From contig NC_090364.1 of NCBI RefSeq assembly GCF_035084215.1, positions 3,410,001-3,474,000 of the forward strand: a DNA stretch of 64,000 bases, written 5' to 3'. Below the pieces are notes generated by a model. The model saw only the letters and a list, made by a program, of their open reading frames with translations. It did no database searches and was not told where the DNA came from. The translations under genes were made by a program, and so were the position numbers. Below, in pieces: positions 39,970-45,250 of the stretch. Each line of letters begins with the position of its first letter. Position 1 is the stretch's first letter. The stretch comes from Heptranchias perlo (Eukaryota).

Positions 39970-40132
39970 ATTGGCTGCATCCCATCCCACTGCCTCCTAC
40001 ATCTTTCCCAGTCTGCTCCTGGATCTATAAAAGAGTTCACATTGACTTCAGTCAACGCCACAGACGGAAAGTGCAGAGTCCTGGAGCATTGGGAGGAACC
40101 AAAGCTTTTATCCAGCGGAGGTGCACAGAGAG
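39970..40132 (+). promoter_or_regulatory. Promoter and non-coding exon 1 of the CGRP-type gene
   Basis: Inverted CCAAT (39970), TATAAAAG (40026-40033), Inr-like TCAGTC (40048), strong donor GAG|gtaaga after 40132; CALCA also has a non-coding exon 1. Confidence 0.65.
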
Positions 40133-40585
40133 GTAAGATGAGCTGCTCCGTTTCACCTCAACTCATGCTGCTGATTGCCACTTTCTTTCATTTTAAACAG
40201 CGAGAGAGGGAGAGAGAAACTTTTCATTTACACAGTGCTTTCCCATGATCTCTCAGGAATGTCACAAGGTGCTTTGGGCACAATGATTGTATTGTGCCTA
40301 ACAACAGTGGTCCCCCGCTCCACCCCTCCCCCCAGCTTTCCGCTCTCCTCTCCTAAAGGTGCTGACTCCCATTGGGCTACAGATCCATGGATCTCCGCAC
40401 AGTGCCCACTCTTTATGGGAGGATCTACAGAGTGAGTCTCATCCGGTTGTCACAGGACATCCCAGCCGGTCCTTGCTAGACAAGGAGCACTTTCCATCAG
40501 GGTGATCGGTTAGAGATTAGGAGGGGGGTCCCTGACTGATTTCTTTCCCTTCCCCTGGTCCTGGGGTTGTAGAACCGAGAACCTC

Positions 40586-41270
40586 GCTACTGAGTGTGAG
40601 GTGTAACAGAGAGAGTGTTATAACTGAGAGTCTAATACTGAGTGTGGGGTGTAACAGAGAGAGTGTTATAACTGAGAGTCTAATACTGAGTGTGGGGTGT
40701 AACAGAGAGAGTGTTATAACTGAGTCTAATACTGAGTGTGGGGTGTAACAGAGAGAGTGTTATAACTGAGAGTCTAATACTGAGTGTGGGGTGTAACAGA
40801 GAGAGTGTTATAACTGAGTCTAATACTGAGTGTGGGGTGTAACAGAGAGAGTGTTATAACTGAGAGTCTAATACTGAGTGTGGGGTGTAACAGAGAGAGT
40901 GTTATAACTGAGAGTCTAATACTGAGTGTGGGGTGTAACAGAAAGAGTGTTATAACTGAGAGCCTTTTGCTGAGTGTGGGGTGTAACAGAGAGTGTTATA
41001 ACTGAGAGCCTTTTGCCGAGTGTGGGGTGTAACAGAGAGAGTGTTATAACTGAGAGCCTTTTGCCGAGTGTGGGGTGTAACAGAGAGAGTGTTATAACTG
41101 AGAGCCTTTTACTGAGGGTGGGGTGTAACAGAGAGAGTGTTATAACTGAGAGTCTTTTACTGAGGGTGGGTGTAACAGAGAGAGTGTTATAACTGAGAGC
41201 CTTTTGCCGAGTGTGGGGTGTAACAGAGAGAGTGTTATAACTGAGAGCCTTTTACTGAGGGTGGGGTGTA
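40586..41270. repeat. 46-48 bp minisatellite, about 14 copies, intron 1
   Basis: Unit actgagtgtggggtgtaacagagagagtgttataactgagagtctaat. Confidence 0.95.
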
Positions 41271-41348
41271 TCCTGGTTGATACTTTGCCCAGTGAGGGGC
41301 AGGGTAGCGATGCCCTCTCACCCTCTCATGTGTTATTTGCAGGCTGCC

Positions 41349-41431
41349 ATGTTTCTGGCGAGGATCCCCCTATCGATGGTCCTGCTTTGTGCCTTGGCTG
41401 TGGCGACTACTTCAGACCTCTCCTCTCTCAG
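41349..41431 (+). CDS. CGRP-type prohormone, signal-peptide exon (MFLARIPLSMVLLCALAVATTSDLSSLR)
   Basis: Acceptor tgttatttgcag| at 41342, Kozak gccATG, hydrophobic core, phase-2 donor AG|gtgggt splitting an Arg codon as in CALCA exon 2. Confidence 0.82.
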
Positions 41432-42526
41432 GTGGGTGATAATCTCTCTCTGGGCTTTTCCTCTCATTTCTTCCTGTGGAGCAGATCGGGATCAGGATCA
41501 GGATCAGGACTGCTTGTAGATCCGTTGGGACGGGAATGTCAGATGGGAATCTTGTTTATTTCCAGATATCTTCCTTTGCTCTCCTACGGCGCTGACTCTT
41601 TCTGCAGTACTGTTCCATGACACCACCCTCCCTCCTTAGACCTGAGCCTAGGCAGTGAGGCAATTTGACCATGGGGTGCATCACAGCTGAGCCCAATAAT
41701 ATCCTCAACCGACATACTTTCCAGAGATAGTGATGAGGAGCAGGAACACCAGCTGACTTCCTTATCCTCGTTCCCTCACCCGGGGCATTGAGATTCCAAC
41801 CACTGCCCCATCTCACATCCACTAACTCAGCACTGATCAGGAATCAGATTTGGGATCACCCTGGGATTTGTGTAGCTCAATAACACACCAGTTGGAATAT
41901 TCAACCACTGAGGCATCGCGGGAGGGTAAAGGGGGAGATTTCTTTTCTCCCGCTTCTCCGTTGGTTGGAACTGAGAAATCCCTCAGACAGTGCCAAAGGA
42001 AAGACAGAGCAAGGGCCTGCATTTATATAGTGCCTTTCACATCCCAAAGAGCTTCACAGCCAATGAGGTACTTTTGAAGTGTAGTCATTATTGTAATGTA
42101 GGGAACGCGGCAGCCAAATTGAGCACAGCAAGATCCCACAAACAGCAATGAGATAATGACCAGGTCACTGTTTTAGGTGTTGGTTGAGGGATAAATATTG
42201 GCCAGGACTCCGGGGAGAACTCCCCTACTGTTTTGAAATAGTGCCCTGGAATCTTGTATGCCCACCTGAGAGGGCAGACGGGGCCTCGGTTTAACATCTC
42301 ATCCGAAAGACGGCACCTCTGACATTGCAGCACTCCCTCAGTACTGGCACCGGGAGTCTAGATTTTGTGCTCAAGTCTCTGGAGTGGGATTTGAACCCAC
42401 GACTGTCTGACTCGGAGGCGAGAGTGTGGAGTGTGCGCTGAGGTTTATACTCCTGGTGTTCTGACCGAGGGCCTTTATCTTTTGCTCGCGTCAGCAGCTG
42501 ACACCCGGGCTTTTGTTCTGTTTCAG

Positions 42527-42661
42527 ATCTCCAGCGACCCGACACTTAGGAAAGATTCTTATCCGTCGTGTGGATGGACACTATTTAGCAGGATCAACAC
42601 AACAACTCCAGCTGCCCAATCCCGCACTATCGTACGTGCAGGAGCAGGAGAGATCAAAAAG
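42527..42661 (+). CDS. CGRP-type prohormone, pro-region exon (SPATRHLGK...SYVQEQERSKR)
   Basis: Acceptor ttttgttctgtttcag|, phase 2-2, 135 nt; YVQ..EQER resembles CALCA exon 3 DYVQ...EQEQER. Confidence 0.78.
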
Positions 42662-42814
42662 GTGTTTCCCGTCTGTCAGTCAGTGTCTCCATCATCCCGC
42701 CTGTCGGTCAGTCTGTCTGTCTCTCTGTCTTCCTGCCTCTCTGTCTGTCTGTCTTTCTGTCTATCTGCCTCTCTGCTGTCTGTCTGTGTGCCTGCCTCTC
42801 TTTTCTCTGTCTGC

Positions 42815-43000: not shown

Positions 43001-43085
43001 CCTTTCCTCCCTCGCTGTCAGTCTAACTCTGCCCTGACTGCCATGTCAGCATTTTGACCCTTTATTTCCCGATCTTTTCTCGCAG

Positions 43086-43254
43086 GCTCTTCCCTCTCCG
43101 TGTGCAGAAACGATCCTGTAACACTGCCACGTGTGTCACGCATCGCCTGGCCAACTTCCTGAGCCGCTCTGGGGCAGTGGGCAGCAGCCGTTTCATCCCC
43201 ACCGACGTCGGGGCAAGAGCGTTTGGGAGAAGGCGCCGAGAGGCTCAGATGTAG
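43086..43254 (+). CDS. CGRP-type prohormone, mature-peptide exon (37-aa CGRP-like peptide at 43114-43224)
   Basis: [48 protein letters not shown]: Cys2-Cys7 ring, C-terminal Phe, Gly amide donor, polybasic site; acceptor ttttctcgcag|. Confidence 0.95.
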
Positions 43255-43448
43255 CAAATCCATTGACTCACACAGGTAGAACCTTCCGGTAATTATACAA
43301 TACTGCTGACAAGGTGGGGGTGGGACACCAGCCACTGGGACCTCACTCAAGCCGCCATTCTTTATGTGTGAGCCTAGACAGCGAGCCTCATCCGGCAATT
43401 CGACCATGGGGTGAAGTAAATGAATGTCTATAAATGTTCATGCTATAG

Positions 43449-43830
43449 TCAGAGGGGCAGACAGACAGAGAGACAGAGGGGCAGACACACAGAGAGACAG
43501 AGGGGCAGACACACAGAGAGACAGAGGGGCAGACAGACAGAGAGACAGAGGGGCAGACACTCAGAGAGACAGAGGGGCAGACAGACAGAGAGACAGAGGG
43601 GCAGACACACAGAGAGACAGAGGGGCAGACAGACAGAGAGACAGAGGGGCAGACACTCAGAGAGACGGAGGGGCAGACACACAGAGAGACAGAGGGGCAG
43701 ACACACAGAGAGACAGAGGGGCAGACACACAGAGAGACAGAGGGGCAGACACACAGAGAGACAGAGGGGCAGACACACAGAGAGACAGAGGGGCAGACAC
43801 TGAGGCAGGCAGACAGAGACACAGACAGAG
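43449..43830. repeat. 24-bp minisatellite downstream of the CGRP exon, inverted relative to 42815
   Basis: (acacacagagagacagaggggcag)n, about 15 copies. Confidence 0.95.
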
Positions 43831-43842
43831 AGGCATGTAAAA

Positions 43843-44085
43843 TCTGGATTATAACATCTGGATTGTAATGCCTGGATTATAACACCGGGACTGTGACATC
43901 TGGATTGTAACATTTGGATTATGAGAGCTCGGTTATAACATCTGCCTTGTAATGCCTGGATTGTAACACCGGGACTGTGACATCTGGATTGCAACAACTG
44001 GATTATGATAGTGAAATTGTAATATCTGGATTGTCTAACCTGGATTGTAACACCTGGATTGATACACCTGGATTCATACATCTGG
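43843..44085. repeat. Degenerate ~13-bp tandem repeat
   Basis: ctggattgtaaca/ctggattataaca variants. Confidence 0.7.
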
Positions 44086-44408
44086 TCTGACACTCTATAA
44101 TACATTAAAAGTCTTGCACATAGAGTGCACTTCCTGTAACATCACACATCCTTCCTGTCACACTTCCTCTGTCACACCACTCTTGTTATAAAATAGCGAA
44201 TCCTTCGACTCATGACGAGCAACTCCAGGGGAGATCTGCCAGCCCATAATAATCACTAAAAGTGATTTTTTTTTTTCTAGACAGTAGCAAGTAGGTCTCG
44301 GTTAATCTGAATAAGAAGCTTTTTGATACATTAGAGATATAAATACATGCCATCTTTCTGATATCTGATCCCCGTTAATCAAACTTTTTTCTCTCCTTTT
44401 CTCTTCAG

Positions 44409-45250
44409 CCTGATTGGGACGCCCTGTTCAAACTGTCCAGCCGTATGATGTCTGGACTCAGCTCGACTTTGCCGAAATTACAACTCGCCTGATTGTGTTG
44501 CCGTCTCTTTCCCGCAGTTTCTGAATTTCTGTCATGTTACCAGGACGCTGGACCCCAGGGAACATGGGGCACAGGATGGCACCATGCCCACATCTCCTAC
44601 AGTGCATTGTCACCCCGCCATCAGTATCAGGCTCTCAGTTATAACACTCTCTCTCTTACACCCCACGCCCTCGGTATAAGACTCTCAGTTATAACACTCT
44701 CTCTGTTACACCCCACCCTCAGTATCAGGCTCTCAGTTATAACACTCTCTCTGTTACACCCCACCCTCAGTATCAGGCTCTCAGTTATAACACTCTCTCT
44801 GTTACACCCCACCCTCAGTATCAGGCTCTCAGTTATAACACTCTCTCTGTTACACCCGCCCTCAGTATTACACTCTCAGTTATAACACTCTCTCTGTTAC
44901 ACACTCCACCCTCAGTACTCTCATTTTTTAAATATTAATTCTCGTGATGTGGGCGACACTGGCAAGGCCGGCATTTATTGCCCATCCCCTAGTTGTCCTG
45001 AGACGGTGGTGGTGGGCCGTATTCTTGATCCGCTGTAGCAGTTTTATAAACCTGAGTGACTTGCTAGAAAGAAAGATATACTTGAAAACTATTCCAGATG
45101 TCATACTCCTGTGTCAGGCTGCCTGTGGGTTGCCTATGTAGTATCTGAGGTTCTGTATTCTGCTTGAATAACTCATTGACTTGTGTCTCAATTGTATTAA
45201 GGAGTGAAGCATTAAGGATATATTAATAAATATTTTCAACAATTTACAGT
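44409..45250 (+). other. Candidate 3'-UTR terminal exon of the CGRP-type gene
   Basis: Donor CAG|gtagaa at 43275, 21 nt after the stop; strong acceptor ttttttctctccttttctcttcag| at 44408; AATAAA at 45225; mirrors CALCA exons 5-6. Confidence 0.6.
44620..44918. repeat. 48-bp minisatellite, about 6 copies, inverted relative to 40586
   Basis: Unit cagtatcaggctctcagttataacactctctctgttacaccccaccct. Confidence 0.93.

Follow-up and report, generated by a model that had tools for sequence, protein, structure and literature searches.

A third CGRP-type gene in the shark Heptranchias perlo, separate from CALCA and amylin and probably a whole-genome-duplication paralogue of CALCA

The DNA analysed here comprises 64 000 nt from the shark Heptranchias perlo (positions 3 410 001–3 474 000 of the forward strand of contig NC_090364.1, NCBI RefSeq assembly GCF_035084215.1) and is referred to as the window. 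It contains a gene for a calcitonin gene-related peptide (CGRP)-type peptide, which was confirmed to be real and intact. This is a third gene, separate from the CALCA and amylin (IAPP) genes of the same shark, and it probably originated as a paralogue of CALCA by whole-genome duplication. A fuller account, in which such a paralogue is the CGRP-type partner of the adrenomedullin gene ADM5 and gives rise to an amidated 37-residue peptide acting at RAMP1-containing receptors, is considered probable. The gene had been pointed out beforehand from the letters of the window and a list of its open reading frames (ORFs); this earlier proposal is called the sequence-only reading below.

Gene structure and precursor

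The contig that carries the gene is denoted C43; C12, C27, C25 and similar labels denote other contigs of the H. perlo assembly. Three coding exons, 41349–41431 (83 nt), 42527–42661 (135 nt) and 43086–43254 (169 nt), bounded by AG acceptors and GT donors, are joined by two junctions, each in phase 2, and the spliced product consists of 128 residues and a stop codon. The precursor contains a Lys-Arg pair (KR) followed by the 37-residue peptide and then G-RRRR. The exons, their phases, the 128-residue layout and the peptide itself were all reproduced exactly as the sequence-only reading had given them. The family features are a dibasic site, the residues of the N-terminal disulfide ring and a Gly-basic amidation signal; a signal peptide with a hydrophobic core at residues 8–18 is predicted from hydropathy. 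The last exon matched Pfam PF00214 with 68 bits (curated cut-off 22.3; E = 1.5e-18), and the motif [KR]R-x?-C-x4/5-C had a single occurrence across the six frames of the window. The features of the gene are as follows (positions are those of the whole window).

40026..40031, + strand: TATA box (TATAAA), putative in function
40055..40132, + strand: putative non-coding exon 1, start approximate, with the donor GTAAGA after 40132, placed from sequence signals
41343..41431, + strand: exon 2, with 6 nt of 5' untranslated region (UTR), ATG at 41349, signal peptide and 83 coding nt, phase 2
42527..42661, + strand: exon 3, pro-region, 135 nt, phase 2, equal in length to the matching exon in the shark's own CALCA and amylin genes
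42662..43085, + strand: intron of 424 nt, mostly simple repeat, at the site of the calcitonin exon in CALCA
43086..43275, + strand: exon 4, with the end of the pro-region, KR, mature peptide, G-RRRR, short tail, stop codon and 21 nt of 3' UTR
43114..43224, + strand: predicted mature 37-residue peptide with Cys2-Cys7 ring and C-terminal Phe; Gly amide donor at 43225–43227
44409..45250, + strand: putative 3'-UTR exon, placed from a strong acceptor ending at 44408 (the best) and AATAAA at 45225

The spliced protein is identical over its full length to RefSeq XP_067830269.1 ('calcitonin gene-related peptide 2-like', Heptranchias perlo). The gene had been described as hidden, a description that falls with this existing, named model. 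As the automatic RefSeq annotation reached the same model, the agreement is one between predictions and not with experiment.

The sequence-only reading had also claimed a TATA promoter, a non-coding exon 1, a 3'-UTR exon and escape from nonsense-mediated decay. The TATA box, the acceptor and AATAAA are present and the stop codon ends 21 nt ahead of the donor at 43276 as described; exon 1, the 3'-UTR exon and the escape itself are putative, being drawn from sequence signals. Acceptor-like sites end at 44284, 44408 and 44517, and an acceptor precedes 41343. Intron 1 contains a 48-nt tandem repeat of 14.4 copies (40588–41270), and an opposite-strand array of the same repeat unit lies in the putative 3' UTR at ~44630–44900.

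Contigs from four sequencing runs (X1–X4; two samples, two studies) were placed on 41280–42700 only; none of the runs is recorded as RNA, and their RNA status is a guess. Contigs from X1 cover exons 2 and 3, those from X2 and X3 cover exon 3 in part or whole and those from X4 give no cover on either exon. In one X3 contig (record 24, 453 letters) the match stops at 42662, at the donor, and the next 340 letters are unlike the intron; X3 also covers one intron bin (41472–41519). Cover was lacking in most intron bins adjoining the exons, an outcome given no weight as evidence. No exon–exon joint was found among the best 15 of the 218 joints listed, and repeats at ~42000–42430 dominate the joint tables.

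Other family genes in the same genome

A complete CALCA gene with signal, pro, calcitonin and CGRP exons was located on C12 (86, 135 and 160 nt in its CGRP form) and an amylin gene on C27 (exons of 86, 135 and 190 nt, phase 2/2). Since all three genes have phase-2/2 junctions and a pro exon of 135 nt, the layout is ancestral and not a mark of CALCA. The sequence-only reading had likened it to the CGRP transcript of CALCA; that layout is indeed present, but it is not specific to CALCA, as the shark's own amylin gene shares the 86/135-nt, phase-2/2 plan.

No calcitonin exon was found in the window, either by three-frame translation of the 424-nt intron or by tblastn with the shark's calcitonin exon. 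The best tblastn match in the window was the CGRP-type exon itself (E = 0.02), followed by one with E = 0.18; the positive control, C12, gave E = 3e-42. Lacking this exon, the gene has no calcitonin/CGRP alternative splicing and, thus freed, would be open to an expression pattern of its own.

The full CALCA on C12 fills the role of the CALCA 1:1 orthologue, so the gene in the window is not that orthologue; the absent calcitonin exon, the grouping of the C12 locus with other CALCAs and the non-conserved pro-region led to the same rejection. A tandem duplicate of the CALCB/CRSP type was also rejected, the gene being on C43 and CALCA on C12. The proposal of a separate CGRP-family gene is thus upheld: it is neither the sole CALCA of the genome nor its 1:1 orthologue.

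Three further matches in the genome (L004, L013 and L015) were not family members on reading, and among the best candidates, which were the ones scored, ADM2 was not represented and neither C30 nor C21 carried a member of the family. About 640 nt downstream of the true signal-peptide exon of amylin lies a truncated duplicate of it (C27:9322393, − strand, in L019); a sawshark amylin model (P0198) seems to have a comparable duplicate spliced in.

Comparison of the peptide and precursor

The mature peptide is identical to the shark's own CGRP at 27/37 positions, to 16 other CALCA-type rows at 27–30/37 (30/37 for lungfish CGRP) and to nine amylins at 16–21/37; its best match among solved structures was human CGRP (E = 2.4e-12). 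It has the features of a CGRP-type peptide, namely 37 residues, Cys2 and Cys7, A5, T6, T30 and a C-terminal Phe with an amidation signal. The signal and pro regions had been described as very unlike those of CALCA, and this was borne out: the pre-pro region is essentially unalignable with CALCA (11 identities, score 6.5) versus 44 identities of ~81 (score 198.5) with the sawfish orthologue. A search of the ESM Atlas returned only CGRP and amylin clusters, with a poor Atlas model (predicted template-modelling score 0.18).

Between this shark and six rays the mature peptide is 31–33/37 identical. N14, A21 and I28, mostly in the mid-region of the peptide, mark the group: they are present in 7/7 of the 37-residue orthologues and in 0/17 CALCA rows. 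Residue 10 is His in all 17 CALCA CGRPs; across the seven 37-residue forms it is Ile in four and His, Phe and Leu in one each, the rays having Ile, Phe or Leu. Two sharks have a 36-residue form that departs at some of the group marks. In 9/9 species the frame is open and the processing sites are preserved.

Not all of the departures from CGRP noted in the sequence-only reading survive this comparison. A21 and I28 do; the CGRP of this same shark also has S24, S25, D31 and A34, and among the seven 37-residue orthologues no other species has R26 or R35. N14 had been taken as amylin-like, but D14 is found in 8/9 amylins of the set and N14 in one, a mammalian amylin. The shark's ordinary CGRP (C12:32749292-32749444) differs at three positions (K3, A8 and T19) from residues that are invariant in the other 16 CALCA rows; drift away from the consensus has thus affected both copies in the shark.

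The part of the pro-region around R41-R42 (residues 36–45, exon 42527–42661) is near-invariant in this shark and the six rays and weaker in the catshark and bamboo shark. To judge from this pattern, a further cleavage site, or a portion of a second peptide, may lie here.

Orthologues and phylogeny

Matching precursors, under various automatic names, were found in nine elasmobranchs: three sharks (Heptranchias, Scyliorhinus torazame and Chiloscyllium punctatum) and six rays (Pristis, Narcine, Hypanus, Hemitrygon and two Mobula). The ray and shark orthologues include XP_051899139.1, XP_069764626.1, XP_059809199.1, XP_062919461.1 and XP_072444349.1. A profile search gave 744 matches among 8000 candidates scored. 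The best eight of the 120 best matches listed were elasmobranch (154–268 bits) and comprised five training rows, an isoform of one of these and two rows from outside the training set (156 and 154 bits); every remaining match among the 120 scored ≤99 bits. Leave-one-out profiles of the last exon sorted 36/36 rows correctly, and of 225 other retrieved proteins just two, the exon of the window itself and the isoform from Mobula, preferred this group's profile.

Trees were calculated with LG+G4, without a mixture model. The 36-row tree and all approximately unbiased (AU) tests omit two cyclostome rows and the mis-modelled sawshark amylin. The nine members form one clade with support of 96/96 in the 39-row tree and 95/96 in the 36-row tree; CALCA monophyly has values of 79/89 and 88/91, neither of them starred, and the teleost rows group with CALCA, apart from the gene in the window. 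The sequence-only reading had suggested a possible loss in mammals. The loss looks wider than this because no retrieved bony-vertebrate protein scored best on the profile of this group. A search with precursor residues 1–84 alone returned only the query (1/9 candidates), the word index being too strict there for the result to bear on absence.

Two proteins, P0146 (Danionella) and P0152, are divergent CGRPs that score higher on the CALCA profile and were not counted as members. A coelacanth protein, XP_005991017.1 (P0157, 'islet amyloid polypeptide-like isoform X2'), is of CGRP type and is the second such protein beside coelacanth CALCA. It has QKR-S1, a hydrophobic residue 10 and Phe-Gly-RRRK, and is only 20–21/37 identical to either group. 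It joins the elasmobranch group weakly in both trees (85/69 and 72/0) and scores 82.9 on the CALCA profile versus 75.9 on that of this group. Its placement as a bony-vertebrate amylin was rejected (p-AU = 0.001); as a coelacanth-specific CALCA duplicate it was not (p-AU = 0.24), and it may be such a duplicate. Its membership of the shark group is treated as a lead suggested by these comparisons. Database names appear to be crossed here: the coelacanth 'amylin-like' P0157 is of CGRP type, and the whale shark and sawshark 'CGRP' entries (P0165 and P0198) are amylins.

Chromosomal context and origin

That the gene is a whole-genome-duplication paralogue of CALCA is suggested by the company it keeps. 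Seven multi-gene families were picked, non-randomly, from a human 11p15/19q13/12p map or, for TMEM86, from membership of the window, and six of the seven are represented on C12 as well as on C43, which is 0.6% of the assembly. Tub has no member on C43. The six families and the neighbour in the window are as follows.

Adrenomedullin: C12 37.08 Mb, C43 7.72 Mb
TMEM86: C12 23.9 Mb, C43 3.44 Mb
TEAD: C12 71.2–71.3 Mb, C43 0.70 Mb
Parathyroid hormone: C12 70.6 Mb, C43 6.52 Mb
Glycogen synthase: C12 24.11–24.19 Mb, C43 0.24–0.28 Mb, with a further gene on C27
Troponin: C12 27.0–27.5 Mb, C43 5.55 Mb
Window 27120..35216, + strand: upstream neighbour, YhhN/TMEM86-family gene, a synteny marker with a paralogue on C12

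The CGRP-type gene and adrenomedullin are ~4.3 Mb apart on C12 and on C43. The glycogen synthase gene on C27 lies 0.2 Mb from amylin, and the sole match to TIP39 is on C43. Downstream of the gene, where a Pfam scan covered the nearest 146 of 358 ORFs, an R-Ras-type gene ends at ~35 kb and a Kir6-type ORF lies at ~73 kb (C43:3526689-3528176, − strand; L057:2689-4176). The latter is about equally close to Kir6.2 (605 bits) and Kir6.1 (583 bits) and may be a third Kir6 paralogue of the ATP-sensitive potassium channels. In humans we take RRAS2 to lie near CALCA, KCNJ8 near IAPP and KCNJ11 on 11p15, and RRAS, GYS1, TEAD2, PTH2 and ADM5 to lie on 19q13.33; we know of no CGRP-type gene at human 19q13.33. 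The R-Ras-type and Kir6-type neighbours are compatible with this human arrangement. At fourfold sites the gene differs from CALCA at 12/20, and the other C12/C43 pairs differ at 16/29 (TMEM86), 7/9 and 7/13 (TEAD) and 5/8 (ADM). On this account the gene would lie on a third copy of an ancestral chromosome block, accompanied by TIP39, R-Ras, a Kir6 channel and an adrenomedullin of ADM5 type; sharks and rays would have retained the gene, and most or all bony vertebrates would have lost it.

Several observations weigh against an origin by whole-genome duplication. The counts at fourfold sites are low, uncalibrated and close to saturation, and the marker families were chosen from the human map, or in the case of TMEM86 from the window itself. 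A clade of the group with the shark's own CALCA is kept at a cost of 1.3 log-likelihood units (p-AU = 0.47, with one cartilaginous-fish CALCA in the test set), which puts the date of the duplication beyond the reach of sequence alone. Translated comparison of C43:3.41–3.67 Mb (264 kb) with C12:32.55–32.97 Mb (420 kb) gave only the CGRP exon and repeat remnants in common, and the closest relative of a G-protein-coupled receptor (GPCR) in the window is on C25, not C12. When matched to solved structures, the adrenomedullin on C43 comes nearer to ADM2 than to ADM, with no ADM5 among its matches; the label ADM5 is our presumption from synteny. No chimaera member was present among the profile matches listed.

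In a competing history, a CALCA duplicate was born within cartilaginous fish, ahead of the divergence of sharks and rays, moved to C43, lost the calcitonin exon and underwent fast evolution of the pro-region, as a shark parallel to CALCB/CRSP but not in tandem. The unrejected clade with the shark's own CALCA fits such a history, as do S24, S25, D31 and A34 in both the mature peptide and the own CGRP, the restriction of the firm members to elasmobranchs (9/9) and the lack of a common neighbour in the C43 and C12 stretches compared. It requires, however, a chance landing on just 0.6% of the assembly, on a contig sharing 6/7 families with that of CALCA, and there beside R-Ras-type and Kir6-type genes; the fourfold-site difference is in line with the old C12/C43 pairs, and the coelacanth has a second, divergent CGRP-type protein. 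We regard this history as unlikely.

A redundant or weak CGRP copy of the same whole-genome-duplication origin, without a role of its own and drifting to loss, seems more improbable still. Frame and processing sites are intact in all nine species, the mature peptide is 31–33/37 identical to those of six rays and the pre-pro region keeps 44 of ~81 residues with sawfish, and N14, A21 and I28 are fixed in the 37-residue forms (7/7) and found in none of the 17 CALCA rows; this conservation has to be set against the variable position 10 (invariant His in CALCA CGRPs), the 36-residue form in two sharks, the distance of the pro-region from CALCA (11 identities) and the seeming absence from most bony vertebrates. 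The remaining suggestion, that the gene is an amylin paralogue or even the true amylin of the shark, can hardly be entertained. Although it too has three coding exons and no calcitonin exon, as in shark amylin, and shares N14 with one mammalian amylin of the set, the true amylin gene is on C27 beside glycogen synthase, the peptide is 16–21/37 identical to amylins versus 27–30/37 to CGRPs and ends in Phe-Gly-RRRR with a short tail, and a clade with shark amylins was rejected (p-AU = 0.0008). Amylin orthology was refuted outright: there is no Tyr-amide, no G-KR with a long tail, and the gene falls outside the IAPP clade. A CALCA paralogue from whole-genome duplication remains the preferred origin.

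Three further observations concern paralogues in this genome. The GPCR in the window (3801–4832, − strand) is a single-exon member of the rhodopsin family, presumably GPR146-like, has a 51% identical relative on C25 and is possibly an extra paralogue. A parathyroid-hormone-family exon on C43 (C43:6518222-6518317, L038) is one of five PF01279 loci besides TIP39 (C21, C12 twice, C30 and C43) and is possibly another retained hormone paralogue. Three divergent YhhN/TMEM86-family exons (L025–L027; C21 and C23 twice) are present beyond the genes on C12 and C43.

Predicted processing and receptors

In this family the precursor loses its signal peptide, is cleaved by convertases at KR and at the basic residues that follow Gly, and is then trimmed and amidated. 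In the same way, the signal peptide would direct this precursor into the secretory pathway, prohormone convertases would cleave behind K81-R82 and in the basic stretch that follows G120, and trimming by a carboxypeptidase and amidation by PAM would yield a peptide of 37 residues bearing a Phe-amide and a Cys2-Cys7 ring. Like CGRP, the amidated peptide would be expected to signal through Gs and cAMP by activating CLR/RAMP1 and probably also CTR/RAMP1.

A5 and T6 drive receptor activation (PMC3904261), F37 is the sole direct contact between peptide and RAMP1 in human structures (PMC11080994), and in chicken the complexes at which CGRP has its highest potency are those with RAMP1, those with RAMP3 responding to it too (PMC11010885). 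The peptide in the window retains A5, T6, the 2–7 ring, T30 and F37. The sequence-only reading had proposed a receptor/RAMP preference peculiar to the peptide. The search of the shark genome gave three RAMP genes, matching RAMP1, 2 and 3, with no further RAMP among the candidates scored. By analogy, given the retained receptor residues, the pharmacology of chicken CGRP and the presence of RAMP1–3, the peptide most likely acts on CLR/RAMP1 and CTR/RAMP1 as a second CGRP.

Relation to known genes

The CGRP transcript of CALCA is the closest known counterpart, with three coding exons in phases 2/2, a 135-nt pro exon and the order KR-peptide-G-RRRR, and with 37 residues, a Cys2-Cys7 ring, a Phe-amide (predicted in the present gene) and a short tail. 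The gene in the window differs in lying on another chromosome-scale contig, in lacking a calcitonin exon, in its unalignable pre-pro region and, with its group, in N14, A21, I28 and the variable position 10. With amylin it shares the form of a single-peptide gene without a calcitonin exon, the 86/135-nt, phase-2/2 plan seen in this shark and a paralogous block; amylin, however, ends in Tyr and G-KR with a long tail where the present peptide ends in Phe and G-RRRR with a short one, the C-terminal half of the present peptide is CGRP-like, and tree and profiles separate the two. Coelacanth P0157 is alike as a second CGRP-type protein beside CALCA with a hydrophobic residue 10, but differs in its identity of 20–21/37 and its higher CALCA-profile score. 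Mammalian CALCB and CRSP are also CGRP-only paralogues of CALCA; according to PMC6283891 they are tandem duplicates next to CALCA, unlike the present gene on its separate contig. Teleost CGRP2 is likewise a second CGRP gene from genome duplication, but the same review describes it as a third-round teleost copy that keeps both calcitonin and CGRP exons (PMC6283891).

The published model, as set out in that review, pairs CGRP with AM1 and amylin with AM2 and leaves AM5 alone on a third chromosome; the review also says that cartilaginous fish had yielded no report of a CGRP gene as of 2018 (PMC6283891). The accessible parts of PMC11698069, PMC5207463, PMC7200681, PMC4362833 and PMC3259696 make no mention of such a gene, and full-text literature searches, to which most subscription journals were out of reach, returned no description of it. 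A prior mention is possible, although we do not expect one. The gene is described here as an apparently unreported member of a well-known family, with no new mechanism, which RefSeq lists under generic names.

Significance

If the gene is indeed a whole-genome-duplication paralogue of CALCA, it would fill the empty slot of the AM5 partner in the published model and add one more hormone to the ancestral jawed-vertebrate set. As two of the three paralogues in this shark are without a calcitonin exon, a single gain in CALCA is the simplest count; it is possible instead that the exon was lost from two paralogues, given that ascidian and amphioxus peptides are described as calcitonin-like or hybrid in PMC6283891. 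Either way, the timing of the origin of calcitonin becomes testable. A bolder proposal, which we hold only tentatively and think rather doubtful, is that jawed vertebrates have a third ancient hormone of CGRP/amylin type, encoded by this gene, which would be the missing partner of ADM5 from genome duplication, present in sharks, rays and coelacanth and with a receptor/RAMP profile of its own (through N14, A21, I28 and a hydrophobic residue 10), and that the ancestor was CGRP-only, calcitonin being a later exon in CALCA alone. The natural CGRP variants kept across sharks and rays provide material for the study of CLR/CTR–RAMP selectivity in a family of drug targets.

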